Shown: piece after piece, positions 30,475 to 56,866 of the stretch
How positions within the stretch are numbered: position 1 is the stretch's first letter
How the letters are laid out: every line of letters begins with the position of its first letter
Program-made: the position numbers and the translations under genes
Notes under the pieces: model-generated
What the model saw: the letters and a program-made list of their open reading frames with translations, nothing else
Told to the model about the DNA's origin: nothing
Database searches by the model: none
NCBI GenBank assembly: GCA_048940925.1
Contig: JBHLOC010000005.1
Coordinates: 16,978-80,977 of the forward strand
From: Promethearchaeota archaeon
GTDB taxonomy: Archaea; Asgardarchaeota; Lokiarchaeia; Sigyniarchaeales; SOKP01
Reading direction: 5' to 3'
Length of the DNA: 64,000 bases

Positions 30475-30849
30475 ATGAATAATTTAAAAATTGAGACTCT
30501 TAATAAAGAATTAGAAAAGTTAGAAATCTTAGGAGATTTTATCGGGAGTGCTATTGTAAACCGTAATGGTTTGTTAATAGCATCAAGCTTACCGAGGGAT
30601 ATAGACGAGAGAAAATTTGGGGCAATGGCAGCTACAATGTTTGGAGCAATTGAAACTGCTGCAATTGCAGTAAAAGAAAGTCATGTGAACAACCTCACAG
30701 TTGAATATAATGATTATCAATTACTTATCATTGGAATAGATGAACAATTTATTTTAGTTACATTAGTAAATTTAAATATCAATTTGGGTTTAATTTTTAT
30801 TGAGATTGAAGAAACTATAAAGAATATAAAAAAAATATTAAAAAGGTGA
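30475..30849 (+). CDS. Roadblock/LC7 domain protein
   Basis: SAIVNRNGLLIAS..GAMAATM. Confidence 0.92.
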   Translation: MNNLKIETLNKELEKLEILGDFIGSAIVNRNGLLIASSLPRDIDERKFGAMAATMFGAIETAAIAVKESHVNNLTVEYNDYQLLIIGIDEQFILVTLVNLNINLGLIFIEIEETIKNIKKILKR

Positions 30850-30855
30850 AAGTTA

Positions 30856-31596
30856 ATCTTAAATCAAAAGCAAAAAGAAAGATATTCAAGGCAAATTATC
30901 TCCCCTTCAATTGGAGAGGAAGGACAAGAAAAACTATCAAAAATTAAAGTTTTGCAAATTGGAGCTGGAGGTTTAGGTTCTCCCTTTGCCTTATATCTGG
31001 TCTCTGCAGGGATTAAAAAACTTACTATAATAGATAATGATAGATTAGATATTTCGAATTTGCAAAGACAGATCTTATATAATGAAACTCAAATTGGAAA
31101 CGCAAAAGCAGATTTAGCCAAGGAAGTATTATCTAAATTAAATTCTGATGTCAAAGTTAACACATATAAAGAATATGTGGATAGAAACTCGATAACTAGG
31201 TATCTTAAAGAGGAAGATTATGATTTTATTGTTGACTGCAGTGATAACTTCTCAACTAAATTTTTAGTGAATAAGGTTTCAGTTGAAAATGGTATAAAAT
31301 GCGTGATTGCGGGAATAAAGGATTTTTATGGTCAAATTATTACAGTTAATCCAAAAAAAACAGCATGTTATCAATGTGTGTTCTCTGAACCAGTAGGGCC
31401 ATTGGTAGATGAAAAACCCTTACCTGTTATTGGTGTCACTCCAGGGATATTGGGAACACTAGAAGCATTAGAAGTAATAAAAACAGCGTTAGGTCTACCC
31501 AATTTGGAAAATAAAGTTCTAATGGTTAATTTAATTGATTTAAGGTTTAACACTATTGATATTGTTAAGAATGAAAATTGCTTTTGCTCAAAATAA
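30856..31596 (+). CDS. ThiF/MoeB/E1-like adenylyltransferase (probable ATC start)
   Basis: ERYSRQI..IGEEGQEKL lies upstream of the ORF-track start (30952); GAGGLG, SNLQRQ, DCSDN, CYQC. Confidence 0.92.
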   Translation: MLNQKQKERYSRQIISPSIGEEGQEKLSKIKVLQIGAGGLGSPFALYLVSAGIKKLTIIDNDRLDISNLQRQILYNETQIGNAKADLAKEVLSKLNSDVKVNTYKEYVDRNSITRYLKEEDYDFIVDCSDNFSTKFLVNKVSVENGIKCVIAGIKDFYGQIITVNPKKTACYQCVFSEPVGPLVDEKPLPVIGVTPGILGTLEALEVIKTALGLPNLENKVLMVNLIDLRFNTIDIVKNENCFCSK

Positions 31597-31607: not shown

Positions 31608-32175
31608 TTAAAAGTTAGGATTTTTTTCAAAAAATTCCTTGAATTTTTTTCCCTTAAGAGCATAAATTTTTGAAGTTCTAGCTCCTTCTAGTTTACCTGT
31701 ATAAATCCCTTCTTTTTTAATTGAAGCGGGGATACCAACCGCTAAGCTTCGGGGAGGGATTTCCTTATTCAGAAGAACAGCTCCCGCTGCAAGTACGGAT
31801 CCTTCACTAAGTTTTGAACGATGAAGCACATTTGAACCAATTCCGACTACACATCCATCTTCTATTATGCAAGGTCCGTGAACCATTCTGCAGATTGAAG
31901 GAAAATCTTCAAGCCTTAGCATGATGACCTATGATACAATCATTTCCTATGTATACGGAACTGTTTGCTTCAAGATGAATCGTTACGTTTTCTTGGATAC
32001 TTGTATTATTCCCTATCTTAATAGATCCCCAATCACCCCTTAAAACAGCTCCAAACCAGACATTCGACCCTTCTCCTATGGTAACATCTCCAATTATAAT
32101 TGCTGTTGGAGCAATATAAGCAGTATTATGAATTTCTGGCTCTTTTCCTGTTTCCGGACTTGGAATTACTGACAT
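31608..32175 (-). CDS. Gamma-carbonic-anhydrase-like hexapeptide-repeat protein, split by a 31-nt insert (join 32175-31917, 31885-31608 = 178 aa)
   Basis: IIGDVTIG..VWFGAVLRGD..QENVTIH..IGHHA in ORF1 and MVHGPC..GIPA in ORF2; removing 31 nt fuses them in frame. Confidence 0.9.
31886..31916 (-). other. Candidate bulge-helix-bulge (BHB) mRNA intron, 31 nt
   Basis: AGGCTTGAAGATTTTCCTTCAATCTGCAGAA with an internal TTGAAG/CTTCAA hairpin; the predicted cuts restore HHA-M-VHG. Confidence 0.7.
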
Positions 32176-32326: not shown

Positions 32327-34729
32327 TCATGTTGAGTGCATCATTAACCATTGAGTAAATAATTGTGATATTTGCATCATAAAATTAGCATCATCAATAG
32401 AACCATTTTTTAATTGCAATACAAGATTCCCTATTTCATTCTTTTTACTTTCATGAAATTGCCTTAATCTATCAGATTCCACGATACCTTCTAGTATTCC
32501 CATAAATGTATCCCAATCTATAGTTGTGGGAACACTAACAGCTTCCTCAGCTACTTCCACTTTTTTAATCTTATATAAGGGATGCTCTTTATAAAATTCT
32601 TTTACATATTCATAGATCTGCTCACAAACCCTTTCAAATTCTTGTGGACTAAAATCAATACCAGGTTCTTGTTTGAGCCCAATAGACATAATATCAGACC
32701 AAGTAACATCTGTTCCTTTCATGGGCAAAACAGGTACCTCATACTTTTTTGAGAGTTCTAATTCATGAGCACAATCGACTGAATTGAATACAGATTTATT
32801 AGTACCTAAGAAGAAGACAACATCACTTATCGGAACATTTTTGTCCATGAATTCATCAATATTACCTGATAGGTCTTGTTCACAGAGAAGTACGTCATAC
32901 ACTTCAGGTTTAGCCTCTAAATAATTACCTAAATCAGATAAGCGATATGGTTCATAGTCTACAACTGCATGAGAAATGAAAATTGACATGCATGATCTTT
33001 GTTTAAAATAATCTCGAAGTGTATCTAAATCGCGTTTAGCTAATTGCTTTTCTTGACTCGATAAAGGATTATCCTCTAAGTTTAAAATTTCTAACGCTTC
33101 TAATGGCCATAATACATATGGCAATTTCTCGAATTTATTTTTATTAAGATTTAAACTCTTAATGTTAGAAAATCCCATGCTTTTTGGCAAAATTGTCAGT
33201 TCATTTTCCTCTAAATTAACATATTCTAGTTTTTCACACTGACCAAGAGATTCTGATATTGAAATTAATTTATTTCTACGAGCATCTAAAACATTAAGAG
33301 AATTCAGTTTATTGAATTGATCAGGTAATCTCTCTAATTTATTTTCATTTATATTTAATTTTTCTAATGAGGATAAATTACAAATTTCAGAAGGTAAGTT
33401 TAGTAATTGATTTTGATCTAAATCTAATTTTTGTAAGTTTACTAATTCTCCTATACTAGAAGGTAAGGTTTCAAGTTGATTATTAGATAAATATAATTCT
33501 CTTAATTTCTCTAACTTTCTAATACTCATAGGTAAACTTTTTAGGTTGCCTTCGGTAATTTTCAAGTACCACAAATAATTTAATTGTCCTATTGAATCGG
33601 GTAGGGATTCTAGAGGTGTTCTGCTAATATAAATATATTCCAGTTTTTTAAGCTGACCAATGTTAGCTGGTAATTGAGATAATTTACAATCACTAATAGT
33701 AAGACGTTGTAGTCCTTTCATTAGGGCAAATGATTCAGGTAAAGAAAAAATGTTATTCCCACTTAAGTCAAGGCCAAATACTTTATCTAAATTGCTTATC
33801 GATTCAGGTAATGTTTCAAGTTGGTTATTTGTTAAATTAATAGTAGCTAAATTTGTTAGATTGCCAATGGATTCAGGTATCTCTTTAACTTGATTATTAT
33901 CTATACGAAGATTAGTTAATGATCTTAAATTACCGATACTAGAAGGAAGAGATTCGAGTTTATTATTTTTAACGAGAAGAACCTTCAGATTTAACAATTT
34001 ACCAATAGATTCAGGTAAACTATGCAAATCTAGAGAACTAATTTCTAAGTTCTCAAGTGCAGTGAGATCTCCAATTGAATCTGGTAATTGAGTAATGTTA
34101 TTTACTCCTATATCAAGAGAATTAAGTGATTTAAGCTGTCCTAGTATTGTAGGTAACTCTGTTATTTTATTATGACCAAGTGCAAGTTTTCTTAGAGCAT
34201 GTAAATTATAGATATTTTCTGGAACATGCATTAATCTGTTATCACTTACGTCGAGTTCAATTAAGGTTGAACAAGCACCAATTTCAATTGGTATATCTCT
34301 TAATTTATTAGAACGAAGATCTAATTTTTCTAGATTCTTGAAATTAGATATCCAGCTTGGAAGTACTTTCAACTCATTAACGCCTAAGCTTATTTCTCTT
34401 AAAGATATACAATTTGCCATACTTGAAGGAAGTTCTGTTAATTGATTTTGAGATGCTCCTAACCATTCTAAGCTAGTTAATTCCCCAATAGAATTTGGTA
34501 GATTCTCAATTTTGTTCCCATAACAAAGTAATGTTTTTAATTCTTTGCAATTTCCTAAATTTTCAGGTAAGTTATCAAGATTACCTCGAGTAATTTCAAT
34601 TCTGATAACATGATTATCCTCCACCCAGAAATTATTAGAACTCCAACTTGATCCTACTTTTTGTTCTAAATCCTTTAATACTTCTACTTCTTCATTCGGT
34701 AATGTAAAATCCATATATTGGATACTCAT
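32327..34729 (-). CDS. LRR (about 22 repeats)-TIR protein with catalytic Glu
   Basis: 23-aa LxxLPxSIGxLxxL repeats; TIR from aa 581: SIFISHA..DVVFFLGTNKSVFNSVDCAHELE (E656). Confidence 0.88.
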   Translation of the reverse strand: MSIQYMDFTLPNEEVEVLKDLEQKVGSSWSSNNFWVEDNHVIRIEITRGNLDNLPENLGNCKELKTLLCYGNKIENLPNSIGELTSLEWLGASQNQLTELPSSMANCISLREISLGVNELKVLPSWISNFKNLEKLDLRSNKLRDIPIEIGACSTLIELDVSDNRLMHVPENIYNLHALRKLALGHNKITELPTILGQLKSLNSLDIGVNNITQLPDSIGDLTALENLEISSLDLHSLPESIGKLLNLKVLLVKNNKLESLPSSIGNLRSLTNLRIDNNQVKEIPESIGNLTNLATINLTNNQLETLPESISNLDKVFGLDLSGNNIFSLPESFALMKGLQRLTISDCKLSQLPANIGQLKKLEYIYISRTPLESLPDSIGQLNYLWYLKITEGNLKSLPMSIRKLEKLRELYLSNNQLETLPSSIGELVNLQKLDLDQNQLLNLPSEICNLSSLEKLNINENKLERLPDQFNKLNSLNVLDARRNKLISISESLGQCEKLEYVNLEENELTILPKSMGFSNIKSLNLNKNKFEKLPYVLWPLEALEILNLEDNPLSSQEKQLAKRDLDTLRDYFKQRSCMSIFISHAVVDYEPYRLSDLGNYLEAKPEVYDVLLCEQDLSGNIDEFMDKNVPISDVVFFLGTNKSVFNSVDCAHELELSKKYEVPVLPMKGTDVTWSDIMSIGLKQEPGIDFSPQEFERVCEQIYEYVKEFYKEHPLYKIKKVEVAEEAVSVPTTIDWDTFMGILEGIVESDRLRQFHESKKNEIGNLVLQLKNGSIDDANFMMQISQLFTQWLMMHST

Positions 34730-37107
34730 GTTTGTCCCCCTCCAAGATATTGCTTCATAGCTTGTTTTTGTTGCATAAATCCCATGAAATAACCAGAGAG
34801 TTGGGTAAGAAATAAACCTTCTCCCCCAACCTTTGCACTCTGCAAACTAGTACAAATTGTAGTTAAAGCTACTTGATTTTTCTCAAAAAAATCTTTCATA
34901 TCATTTAAATGAATTATACGATTAAGCTCAGCTTTAAATGTTCCAAAACTAGTAGTATCACCGACTTCTGCCTCAATTTCTTTTAGTAGAATGTTAGTTT
35001 TGTCTTTAAAGATATTATGTGATCGTTTCAATTGTTGAATATAACTATAGGTATTTTCACAAAAACCGGTAAAGTCATTGGGAGTAAATTCATGGCCTAA
35101 TTCACGGCTTAGATCTACTACTGCAAGATCAGCCCAACTAACATCCAGTCCTTTTAAAGGTACTACTTCAATTCCTTGTGATTTAGCATTTTTTAAGATT
35201 TGAACCATATTTGGAGAATTTATTGATCTTGCTGTAGCAAGAAATAAAATTAAATCAGTCGCAGTGAGATTAGATTCAATAGGAGGTAGGATTGCAAAAA
35301 TTTCGCTTTTATTTTCTAAATATTCAATCAATTCAGGAATACGATGAGCTTCCGCATCAATTTCAGTGTGCATAAGCATTATTGCGATACTTGTTCGTTG
35401 ACGACAATATTCTAATATGGCATCAGTGTCTCTTTGTGCAATTTCCTGTTCTTCTTCTGAAAGTGGATTGCCCATAACTTTTAACTTTCTTAAAGATTTC
35501 ATTGTCCATATAAAATAAGGAAGGGTTGAAAGTTGATTATTAGAAATATCAAGATCAGATAATTTCATCTCTGTAATGGCTTCAGGTAATTCAGAAATTT
35601 GGTTATTACTTAACCACAGAGTTTCTAGACTATCTAAATTCGCAATAGATGGAGGTAGTTCTGTAATCTTATTATTCATTAATAAAAACCAGCTTAAAGA
35701 TTTCAATTGTTCGATGCAATCTGGGATCTCATTTATTAAATTAAATGAGAGTTGTAATTGATTAAGTTTTGTTAATCTACAGAGGGATAAGGGAATTGAT
35801 GAGATCCTATTTGAATTAAGATTTAGACTTTTTAAATCAGAGAGTTCACCAATAGAATCTGGTATTCTAGACAAACGATTTTGGGATAGACTAACTTCTG
35901 TGAGTAGTGTAAGCTGACCAAAATTGTCTGACAAGATCCTTAATCCATTATTTTCACATTTAAATACTTTTAACTTTTTCAATTCACAAAAAGATTTAGG
36001 GAGTTCTGATATTTCATTGTAAAGAGGTTTATCATCATTAGTTGACCATGTACCATTAAGATCTAATTCTTCTAACTCGTGGAGATTCCCAAAAGATTCG
36101 GGTAAGGATTCAAGTTTATTTTGAGACAGATCTAAGAACCTTAGGTTGGTTAAATTACCAATACTGTCAGGTAGAAGGTCTAGATCTTTCCAACCAATAT
36201 TTAATCCTATAATATGTTGATTGTCACTTATAAAGCCAAAATGGCTTACACTAGCAGATTGTTCTGATACCTGCTGTACTGGTTGCATAGCTTGTTGTTG
36301 CACTTGTTGCGATGTTTGCATTTGTACTCCATATTGTGCCAGAATATTTTGTATATTTTGAAATATTGATTGAGCATATTGTTTAGCGAATTGCATCGCT
36401 AACTCTTCACTCATTCCAAGTACTGGTTTCAAACCAGCGAAAGTAGGGTCGTTTTCTCCTAATACCTGAATACCCACTTCGATAGTTTCTTTTAATTGGG
36501 TTTGATATTCTGGTGTAATCATCGAATTGTAATAATTTATGCATTCCTTTTCTAATTCTTCAAAAGGTATCTGAGAAAACATGACATCATTTATTCTTCG
36601 AGTTGCTTCTTTGTTTACTGCCTGGAGTTTGAAATTTTGTTGCATAAATATCGCCATAGCTTTTGCTTTTTGTTTTGCCTTATCTTCGTCCATTTCTAAC
36701 ATTGCTTTAATTTGCTTAACAGAGGGATGTTCTTCCCCTAACATCGGAACAAGAGATTTAAGCTGCGCTTGTAGACTTGCTTGCATAGTTGGATTTACTT
36801 GTGCTAAATACTGACTTTCATACTGTTTCTCTAAATCTTCTAATGAGAGTTGTGCTAATCTTTCCTGTTCCGCCGTTTGAGCTTTGACAGCTTGATCTTG
36901 GGAATCTAGAATTGACTGAATGCTCATCTGACTTGTTTGGGGTTGGTATGCTTGAAATGATTCAGCTACTTTCCGTTTTGCTTCATCTCTATCTTCACGA
37001 CAAGGAATTTTTTCTGCAATGAATTTCTCTATTTGCTCAAGAAATTCTGTTTCTGATGCTACTAATAATACACCATTATATTCTTTTAATTCTTCAATAA
37101 TTATCAC
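34726..37107 (-). CDS. LRR (about 11 repeats)-degenerate TIR protein with a Gln-rich helical insertion
   Basis: LRRs; C-terminal region aligns with the neighbour's TIR but NSPNMVQIL replaces NSVDCAHEL; ATGA overlap with the neighbour. Confidence 0.85.
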   Translation of the reverse strand: MIIIEELKEYNGVLLVASETEFLEQIEKFIAEKIPCREDRDEAKRKVAESFQAYQPQTSQMSIQSILDSQDQAVKAQTAEQERLAQLSLEDLEKQYESQYLAQVNPTMQASLQAQLKSLVPMLGEEHPSVKQIKAMLEMDEDKAKQKAKAMAIFMQQNFKLQAVNKEATRRINDVMFSQIPFEELEKECINYYNSMITPEYQTQLKETIEVGIQVLGENDPTFAGLKPVLGMSEELAMQFAKQYAQSIFQNIQNILAQYGVQMQTSQQVQQQAMQPVQQVSEQSASVSHFGFISDNQHIIGLNIGWKDLDLLPDSIGNLTNLRFLDLSQNKLESLPESFGNLHELEELDLNGTWSTNDDKPLYNEISELPKSFCELKKLKVFKCENNGLRILSDNFGQLTLLTEVSLSQNRLSRIPDSIGELSDLKSLNLNSNRISSIPLSLCRLTKLNQLQLSFNLINEIPDCIEQLKSLSWFLLMNNKITELPPSIANLDSLETLWLSNNQISELPEAITEMKLSDLDISNNQLSTLPYFIWTMKSLRKLKVMGNPLSEEEQEIAQRDTDAILEYCRQRTSIAIMLMHTEIDAEAHRIPELIEYLENKSEIFAILPPIESNLTATDLILFLATARSINSPNMVQILKNAKSQGIEVVPLKGLDVSWADLAVVDLSRELGHEFTPNDFTGFCENTYSYIQQLKRSHNIFKDKTNILLKEIEAEVGDTTSFGTFKAELNRIIHLNDMKDFFEKNQVALTTICTSLQSAKVGGEGLFLTQLSGYFMGFMQQKQAMKQYLGGGQT

Positions 37108-56263: not shown

Positions 56264-56866
56264 ATGACAGAAGAATCGATTGAAAAAGCGGAGAAACTAC
56301 AATTCGAGGGAGTTATCGAAGAAGATAAAGTTATTGTCTCTGATAAAAGAGGAATTGACGAATTTTACAATTCATCCTATATTGGGACTCTCACAAAAAA
56401 TAATGAAGGAAATGAAGTTTTAATTTTTGATGCTATCGAAGTATTACTTCTATGCGAAAGAAATAGAATCCTCTTATGGGAAGAAAACGATAAAGGTAAA
56501 ACCCAATATGATTTTGAGGGTTTGTTATTGTATTTCACTCATTATGATGAGAGATTATGGCATAAATATATAATCTATATGGATCTAAGAAAAAGAGGAT
56601 ATATCGTCCGAACTGGCTATGGAAATGGAATAGAATTTCGTGTTTTTAAGAGAGGAGCTGATTTTGAAAAGGATACAGCGAAATTTTTGATATATCCTGT
56701 ATTTGAAGGAGAACCTATAGAATTAAGGGATTTAGATAAAATGTCAAGAGTAGCCATGAGTTCACGTAAAGATTTAATTGTAGCAACTGTAGATAGATTA
56801 AGCAAACCAATATATTATAGTGTAAAGAAATTCCAGATTCTAAATATAGAAGATAATTTAGAATAA
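56264..56866 (+). CDS. endA: tRNA-splicing endonuclease subunit, probably the non-catalytic (structural) one
   Basis: IYMDLRKRGYIVRTG..EFRVFKRG..SRVAMSSRKDLIVA; catalytic Tyr and His positions read F and T. Confidence 0.88.
   Translation: MTEESIEKAEKLQFEGVIEEDKVIVSDKRGIDEFYNSSYIGTLTKNNEGNEVLIFDAIEVLLLCERNRILLWEENDKGKTQYDFEGLLLYFTHYDERLWHKYIIYMDLRKRGYIVRTGYGNGIEFRVFKRGADFEKDTAKFLIYPVFEGEPIELRDLDKMSRVAMSSRKDLIVATVDRLSKPIYYSVKKFQILNIEDNLE

Follow-up and report, generated by a model that had tools for sequence, protein, structure and literature searches.

A candidate bulge-helix-bulge mini-intron in the coding region of a gamma-carbonic anhydrase-like gene of a Promethearchaeota archaeon

Background

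In a 64,000-nucleotide stretch of the genome of a Promethearchaeota archaeon (contig JBHLOC010000005.1, positions 16,978 to 80,977 of the forward strand, assembly GCA_048940925.1), a gene for a protein resembling the gamma-type carbonic anhydrases (gamma-CAs) is interrupted by 31 nucleotides that bring in a stop codon and a change of frame. The question that this locus raises is whether the interruption disables the gene, divides it into two, or is removed from the RNA. The whole stretch, hereafter the window, belongs to contig C18 of a 4.8-Mb, 90-contig metagenome-assembled genome (MAG; G000) with an estimated contamination of 8.4%. An earlier reading, made from the sequence only, had described the host as Asgard-like, which agrees with its relatives among the Promethearchaeota and Lokiarchaeota, and had taken the insert for an intron of the bulge-helix-bulge (BHB) type.

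The crenarchaeal cbf5 pre-mRNA carries a BHB-like intron in its coding region, with cleavage that depends on the splicing endonuclease EndA and with lineage-specific gain and loss (Watanabe 2002; Yokobori 2009, PMC2738675). A study from 2020 gave cbf5 as the only additional BHB intron reported, and added one case from the 5' untranslated region (UTR) of a Haloferax transcript (PMC7714728). Papers on the tRNA introns of Asgard archaea (PMC11291895; bioRxiv 10.64898/2026.10.13.758758) report no introns in protein-coding genes, and the term 'mRNA' is absent from the preprint. Our full-text literature searches, whose coverage leaves most subscription journals outside, found no BHB intron in an Asgard mRNA.

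In this paper we compare the interrupted gene with its orthologs, score the proposed RNA fold across species and take a census of other genes interrupted in a similar way. On this evidence we put the probability that the insert is a BHB (archaeal, tRNA-type) intron in the coding region of a gamma-CA-like gene at roughly 0.87.

The insert and its host gene

The interrupted gene lies on the minus strand, where GGT CAT CAT GCT A is followed by the 31-nt insert and, beyond it, by TG GTT CAC GGA. Its parts are as follows.

31917..32175, minus strand: exon 1, codons 1-86 and base A of the split codon 87; hexapeptide repeats, ending in GHHA
31886..31916, minus strand: candidate BHB-type mini-intron, 31 nt, at the same site in 8 species; laid out as 1 nt of 5' bulge, a 9-nt strand, a 6-nt loop, a 9-nt strand, the 4-nt 3' strand of the central helix and 2 nt of 3' bulge
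31608..31885, minus strand: exon 2, bases TG of codon 87, codons 88-178 and the stop codon; matches NF050158 and is open in the 8 carriers

The insert splits codon 87 of a 178-aa gene. In the unspliced sequence the frame of exon 1 meets a TGA inside the insert (open reading frame [ORF] 31909-32175, 88 aa) and the second half is read in a different frame (ORF 31608-31922), whereas removal of 31 nt gives a single 178-aa product with the motif GHHAMVHG. The sequence-only reading was exact at every detail of this description that was checked, and the 178-aa product that it had predicted from the excision of exactly 31 nt was reproduced. After the predicted splicing, His67, His84 and His89 fall in the expected H...H-x4-H arrangement.

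In the profile NF050158, exon 1 covers positions 6-82 and exon 2 positions 87-170, so that the coordinates of the two halves adjoin; scored separately, the halves reach 77 and 46 bits, the NCBIfam equivalog cut-off being 250 bits. The hexapeptide-repeat family PF00132 matches both halves, and gamma-CAs are the best PDB matches (E 4e-19). From these matches the predicted product belongs to the gamma-CA-like family of hexapeptide-repeat proteins with a left-handed beta-helix (LbH) fold.

Orthologs and age of the insert

With exon 1 as the query, G000, G002, G004, G048, G061, G059 and G064 showed a frame open for only 90 aa and G052 one of about 100 aa; continuous frames of about 184 aa were found in approximately 35 other congeneric species. 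Both exons were mapped onto each locus to measure the length between them. Uninterrupted orthologs have exactly one codon, ATG, between the two halves, with the motif GHHA-M-[IV]HG in 35 or more congeners, and this is the codon that the predicted excision restores in the window. The 8 interrupted orthologs have 34 nt at this place (33 in G052), which corresponds to an insert in the same codon of 31 nt in 7 species and of 30 nt in one, G052. The sequence-only reading had been concerned that an alternative register would remove 30 nt and fail to restore the frame; in G052 the loop is 1 nt shorter, the insert is 30 nt and the frame is still restored.

The 8 carriers group together as a single clade (support 95/91) in a maximum-likelihood tree of 43 orthologs, next to a sister that lacks the intron. 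A single gain, in the ancestor of the 8 species, suffices. The best continuous protein matches (P0004, P0068, P0036, P0124 and P0125) come from the intronless sister lineages. When a protein collection was searched with each exon for longer proteins, no continuous ORF from the intron-bearing clade was found, which is a weak negative. Judged by these comparisons, the insert is real and old.

An artefact of assembly or sequencing, or a recent repeat resembling a miniature inverted-repeat transposable element (MITE), might be suspected in a 90-contig MAG with the contamination given above. Diverged versions of the insert, however, occupy this codon in 8 species, which stem from several independent studies (the carrier assemblies, among them JBHLNR01, JAGXNO01, JBHLLU01, JBHLRJ01 and JAHQWY01, come from different projects), and a closed chromosome of a congener bears similar inserts of its own. 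An artefact therefore has a vanishingly small probability. The MITE-like repeat was rejected as a candidate: the insert has a single copy in the genome even when up to 5 mismatches in 28 nt are allowed.

Selection on the two exons

Pairwise Nei-Gojobori comparisons among the 8 carriers gave a mean nonsynonymous divergence (dN) of 0.076 and a mean synonymous divergence (dS) of 0.89 for exon 1 (ratio 0.086), and a mean dN of 0.096 and dS of 1.64 for exon 2 (ratio 0.059). The downstream exon is open and conserved in 8/8 carriers. On these values both exons are under strong purifying selection, with synonymous sites saturated. The claim that both halves are undecayed thus stands, the ratios being clearly far from the value near 1 that relaxed selection would give.

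These results bear directly on the possibility that the gene is a pseudogene, in which the insert inactivated a redundant gamma-CA paralog whose halves have yet to decay. An intact paralog does exist on contig C5, with no interruption and with 55% identity across the first 84 residues, and the insert does add a stop codon and a frameshift. The insert has, however, been kept in 8 species at saturated synonymous divergence, with both halves open, and the downstream half, which would be useless if the protein were truncated, is more constrained than the upstream half. Ratios of 0.06-0.09 at saturated synonymous sites effectively refute a pseudogene, and we regard this explanation as highly improbable.

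Predicted RNA structure and cut sites

The fold proposed for the pre-mRNA consists of an outer helix (h), a central helix (H) flanked by two bulges, and a hairpin within the intron (h'). Its elements, from the 5' side, are listed below.

31923-31925, minus strand: 5' strand of outer helix h, AUC, 100% paired in 8 species
31919-31922, minus strand: 5' strand of central helix H, AUGC, with 3 Watson-Crick or GU pairs and an invariant A.G
31916..31918, minus strand: 5' bulge UA|A, predicted to be cut after 31917; cleavage behind its second base restores ATG
31892..31915, minus strand: intron hairpin h', 31907-31915 pairing with 31892-31900, 9 positions with 79% of cells paired
31901-31906, minus strand: hairpin loop, 6 nt; sequence and length (5 or 6 nt) vary among species
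31888-31891, minus strand: 3' strand of the central helix, GCAG; the variation GCAG/GUAG retains pairing (G-C to G-U)
31885-31887, minus strand: 3' bulge AA|U, predicted cut after 31886; invariant in 8 species
31882..31884, minus strand: 3' strand of outer helix h, GGU, or GAU in other species (U-G to U-A, pair kept)

All of the pairings that the sequence-only reading had listed (AUC with GGU, AUGC with GCAG including the A.G, the bulges UA|A and AA|U and the 6-nt loop) are present. The insert scores 3/4 for H, 3/3 for h and 8/9 for h', one of the 9 positions of the intron stem being a C.U. Beyond the outer helix, which is 3/3 paired in the 8 species, a further GGUC/GACC helix lies past a 5-nt loop.

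The fold was scored on an 82-nt alignment around the insert in the 8 species. In the proposed structure, 85% of the cells hold standard pairs; sliding the 3' partners by 1-3 columns lowers this share to 31-42%. With a score of 0.127, based on only 8 related sequences, covariation is stronger than in any of the 500 shuffles or of the slid controls, and three pairs of the intron stem show two-sided changes (e.g. U-A to G-C). The presence of the insert in 8 species, its absence from about 35 congeners and the covarying stem pairs are what had been sought when an alignment of orthologs was proposed as a check. Variation in the central helix is limited to G-C to G-U and in the outer helix to U-G to U-A, and the loop drifts freely.

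The strand of the fold that lies in exon 1 also codes for protein. Over the final five codons of exon 1, synonymous third positions are invariant in 4/5 cases, compared with 9/50 (18%) elsewhere in exon 1 (one-sided Fisher test, approximately 0.009, for a small sample of related species). The only variable synonymous site among these five codons is the first base of the 5' bulge, which is unpaired, varies between U and A and is the synonymous site of an Ala codon. The nearest intronless congeners vary at the exon-strand synonymous sites that are frozen in the carriers. These patterns indicate that selection maintains the RNA structure.

The position of the cuts was examined by shifting the register. 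Of 71 registers tested, 6 restore the orthologous protein, and the register with the best BHB pairing is among these 6. Since an A precedes each cut site, cutting 1 nt earlier at both sites would give the same mRNA, and cuts 2 nt earlier at both sites leave the protein unchanged. A search of Rfam matched no family, either in the window or around the insert.

The BHB interpretation would operate as follows. In the pre-mRNA, the 4-position central helix would form between the end of exon 1 and the 3' end of the intron, the outer helix between the start of exon 2 and exon 1, and the 9-position hairpin within the body of the intron, leaving two 3-nt bulges on opposite strands. The splicing endonuclease of the host, of which two divergent EndA paralogs are encoded and which is probably an alpha2-beta2 enzyme of broad specificity, would cut after the second base of each bulge, and RtcB would ligate the exons, placing ATG between GHHA and VHG in a single 178-aa frame. 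The predicted junction of the spliced RNA is CATGCT-ATGGTTCAC, and the predicted junction peptide is GHHAMVHGPC, listed as GHHAMVHGPCIIEDGCVVGIGSNVLHR. The extent and timing of splicing in cells are inferred.

Other interrupted genes in the genome and family

Other interrupted genes were sought by a census in which ORFs from 2.4 of 3.34 Mb (72%) of the closed congeneric chromosome G006 were compared with G000 by tblastn, and frame-breaking gaps of 10-300 nt, or in-frame gaps with stops, were recorded. The census is partial: introns shared with G006 and very short first exons escape it, and it is biased to conserved regions. The interrupted genes were named through the NCBIfam matches of the uninterrupted G006 orthologs. 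Besides the gamma-CA-like gene, it identified inserts of 29-31 nt in 13 more genes, as follows.

aEF-2
aIF2-gamma
GH38
thiolase-domain protein
AMP phosphorylase
AIR-synthase-like protein
acetoacetate-CoA ligase (two copies)
MBL-fold hydrolase
methylmalonyl-CoA mutase N-domain
small GTPase, insert after DIAGQ
MoeB/ThiF-like protein, insert inside the GxGxxG motif
176-aa protein, no family named

The G000 contigs with such hairpin inserts, those in RNase HII and mevalonate kinase described below included, are C32, C68, C43, C77, C64, C30, C17/C57, C87, C54, C78, C71, C70 and C40. The insert of aEF-2 occupies C32:27895-27924 and that of aIF2-gamma C68:45858-45887. In aIF2-gamma a 30-nt hairpin insert follows GHVDHG and splits the P-loop Lys codon as A|AG, and in GH38 30 nt split HWDRE|WY. 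RNase HII has a 30-nt insert at DEAGR|G and mevalonate kinase a 31-nt insert at GE|HF. All clear cases are built alike, with a single bulge base, a stem of 9 positions, a loop of 5 or 6 nt, then 9, 4 and 2 nt. Their loops often end in UC, the 3' bulge starts with A in all, the 5' exon end is often RUGG-AA, and the inserts often lie inside conserved motifs. The central helix H of these sister introns pairs at 3-4 of its 4 positions.

Whether the BHB rule places the cuts where homology needs them can be asked at each locus. Approximately 70 registers per locus were scored for BHB pairing, and the registers that restore the protein were identified independently. At 14/16 loci the top BHB register is one of the 1-6 registers consistent with homology, for which the chance is about 1-9% per locus. 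The junction is unique in aIF2-gamma, GH38, the GTPase and the mutase, and lies within a codon in aIF2-gamma and the mutase. The 2/16 loci that do not follow the rule are GH57, with an ortholog of 33% identity, and a 65-nt insert in rpoA1.

The rpoA1 insert, in the gene for RNA polymerase subunit A' (C62:7960-8024, minus strand), shifts the frame at GHFG|HIKL and has no counterpart in G006; its fold comprises several hairpins, unlike the simple 30-nt BHB layout. The acetoacetate-CoA ligase region is present twice in nearly identical form, intron included (C17:5106-5135 and C57:77604-77633), which reflects either a duplication or contamination or strain redundancy of the MAG.

The closed chromosome G006 in turn has 30-nt inserts that have no counterpart in G000, for instance at the motif DG|NRRW (UPP-synthase-like), and the presence or absence of inserts consequently varies between congeners. 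Examples of the G006 inserts are:

1505071-1505100, plus strand: 30-nt insert
1621948-1621977, minus strand: 30-nt insert
1410020-1410049, minus strand: 30-nt insert

Across the family, the EF-2 match is about 30 nt longer, with 1-3 in-frame stops, in approximately 25/134 genomes of several genera (e.g. G023), and it is 57 nt longer in G018. Such EF-2 inserts were found in 0/26 genomes of six other families in the class.

The sequence-only reading had suggested scanning the genome for other split genes with BHB folds. The census did yield such genes. Ab initio scanning was uninformative, as described below, and a narrow scan of the genome for the hairpin motif only re-found known cases.

In the genome, aIF2-gamma and aEF-2 are each represented by a single ortholog. 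Since single-copy genes of this kind would be unworkable as two polypeptides, by bypass or as pseudogenes, their inserts must leave the RNA. The identical architecture in split-codon genes without a start codon implies that a general mechanism of RNA excision must exist in the cell.

The same loci weigh on translational recoding, in which the ribosome would bypass the insert or shift its frame. Bypass elements such as those of T4 gene 60 and mitochondrial byps remain part of the mRNA and depend on a take-off codon and a landing codon that match. Like the inserts described here, they are short and have hairpins and stops inside otherwise intact genes, and in the gamma-CA-like gene the likeness, which is superficial, extends to a stop a few codons after the take-off. 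The gamma-CA-like gene, however, has no matching codon pair: the take-off codon is GCU or GCA, and landing on the single GCA within the insert would leave the ribosome out of frame. A gap of 31 nt is not a -1 or +1 shift, the sister introns split codons, and the A|AG split of aIF2-gamma, with its unique register, could not be repaired by a ribosome that reads whole codons. Recoding of either form is thus very improbable.

Evidence against a BHB intron and the split-gene alternative

Several observations weigh against the reading of the insert as a BHB intron. The central helix has three standard pairs and an A.G that is invariant in 8/8 species, and because of this mismatch the motif is relaxed and not canonical. 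The minimum free energy fold of the single sequence does not coincide with the BHB fold, and its stability is not significant (z = -1.16); for these two reasons the case is built on comparison and not on energy. Since an intact paralog is present on contig C5, the host gene is not demonstrably essential. Three ab initio scans of the genome, based on BHB geometry and ORF restoration, gave results that could not be separated from the noise of gene junctions; same-strand gene junctions yield about 10^5 ORF-compatible sites per intron length, and the sites that passed were as many as among decoys or as expected by chance. Finally, the in-frame TGA is invariant in the 8 species and a Met codon lies exactly at the 3' edge of the insert; taken by itself, the sequence of this gene is compatible with two polypeptides.

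This last observation is what would be expected if the insert had made a split gene, with two cistrons encoding polypeptides of 88 and 92 aa that assemble non-covalently into the beta-helix. The invariant TGA and the Met codon at the 3' edge made this a serious alternative, initially given close to a quarter of the probability, and the freedom of the insert length from the frame (30 or 31 nt) fits a split gene as well as it fits splicing. A split gene, however, leaves unexplained the covarying hairpin, the invariant 3' GCAG/AA and the frozen synonymous sites of the exon strand. No motif like a Shine-Dalgarno sequence precedes the ATG, and the break would separate two metal-ligand His residues that are five residues apart. 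The same architecture is also found where codons are split and there is no start codon, as in the P-loop Lys of aIF2-gamma and in the mutase. We now consider a split gene quite improbable, and a BHB intron remains the best explanation of the insert.

Splicing machinery in the genome

Splicing of a BHB intron would call for an endonuclease and a ligase, and candidates for both are encoded in the genome. One of them is in the window, about 24 kb away from the intron.

56264..56866, plus strand: EndA paralog, 200 aa, matching PF01974 (68 bits) and PF02778

A profile search of the genome with PF01974 found two EndA paralogs (102 and 70 bits), the second on contig C58. The paralogs are 28% identical and each has an N-terminal and a catalytic domain. 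In the pairwise alignment, the His of the EHS of the C58 copy is replaced in the window copy; lacking this His, the window copy would be of the structural beta type and the C58 copy the catalytic alpha. The EndA of the window would thus probably serve as the beta-type, structural subunit of an (alpha-beta)2 splicing endonuclease. This type of EndA is reported to accept non-canonical motifs (PMC5829648). RtcB is also encoded in the genome (556 bits). EndA and RtcB are the enzymes that we infer to be responsible.

ARAGORN found only 34 tRNA genes, 22/34 with introns, which is consistent with the intron-rich tRNA gene sets described for Asgard archaea (PMC11291895). Since its calls are unreliable in an intron-rich genome, a comparison of the inserts with these tRNA introns is uninformative.

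Other enzymes could in principle excise the RNA, for example another structure-specific nuclease and a ligase acting on the hairpin, and the inserts are indeed far more stereotyped (29-31 nt) than the tRNA introns called by ARAGORN (9 to 89 nt). Nevertheless the rule for EndA, with bulges of 3 nt, a helix of 4 positions and cleavage behind the second bulge base, predicts the junctions at 14/16 loci, two EndA paralogs and RtcB are encoded, and cleavage of BHB-like mRNA by EndA is documented for cbf5 (PMC2738675) and the Haloferax 5' UTR (PMC7714728). Excision by enzymes other than EndA and RtcB is improbable.

Discussion

The sequence-level predictions of the BHB-intron claim that were tested (an insert at the same site in relatives, selection on the exons, covariation, cut sites, enzymes and recurrence) all held. 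We further think it likely, with somewhat less confidence than for the gamma-CA-like gene itself, that a whole Asgard family related to the Lokiarchaeia routinely splices mRNAs with its tRNA-splicing machinery and has dozens of mini-introns of about 30 nt. The genes concerned would include aEF-2, aIF2-gamma, RNase HII and possibly RpoA', and the introns would be gained and lost between species.

The mechanism itself is known; what is new, relative to the literature that could be searched, is its apparent occurrence in this gene, in Asgard archaea and in a stereotyped set of several genes that includes essential ones. The cbf5 intron is similar in being BHB-like and in a coding region, in the hetero-oligomeric EndA of its hosts and in its gain and loss by lineage. 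In this case, however, the host gene is gamma-CA-like and belongs to an Asgard archaeon (Promethearchaeota), and is not a cbf5/dyskerin homolog of the Desulfurococcales or Sulfolobales; moreover, cbf5 is the sole such gene reported in crenarchaea, whereas at least 14 genes with a stereotyped 29-31-nt element are described here. The BHB intron in the 5' UTR of HVO_1309 of Haloferax volcanii (PMC7714728) is likewise an EndA substrate in mRNA, there confirmed in vivo and in vitro, but it is a single case, in a UTR, and interrupts no reading frame. The BHB introns of archaeal tRNA and rRNA have the same h-B-H-B-h' geometry and presumably the same enzymes; here the host is an mRNA, in which the exon strand also codes and excision must precede or compete with translation.

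Splicing outside the spliceosome is also found in the HAC1/XBP1 mRNA of eukaryotes, from which Ire1 and tRNA ligase or RtcB remove a short frame-changing intron, the metazoan ligase being RtcB. The parallel lies in the removal of an intron from mRNA by an endonuclease and a tRNA-type ligase. Ire1, in contrast, reads twin stem-loops and not a BHB, and its splicing is stress-regulated and confined to one mRNA.

The same chemistry is apparently needed for a gamma-CA-like gene in eight Asgard species and for single-copy essential translation genes. If this is true, interrupted protein genes would be normal in one Asgard family, and gene callers would systematically misannotate such genomes, producing frameshifts, pseudogenes and split ORFs. 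Relatives of the eukaryotes that have no nucleus and couple transcription to translation would have to keep ribosomes off unspliced mRNA, and some process would keep producing introns of nearly identical architecture at new positions. How short introns arise and spread could then be traced in the closest prokaryotic relatives of eukaryotes, on the time scale of species and through presence/absence polymorphism.

Neighbouring genes

Two adjacent large ORFs of 800 and 793 aa occupy 32327-37107 of the window (minus strand). Leucine-rich repeats abound in the first, which is the immediate upstream neighbour of the gamma-CA-like gene and shares its strand.

The gamma-CA-like gene is adjoined by a ThiF/MoeB-like ORF (30847-31596, plus strand) that has no ATG, GTG or TTG upstream of the conserved ERYSRQ and GAGGLG. 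This ORF runs on in frame from the TGA of an upstream roadblock/LC7-like ORF, and does likewise in the congener G006; a non-canonical start, read-through or another cause is possible.

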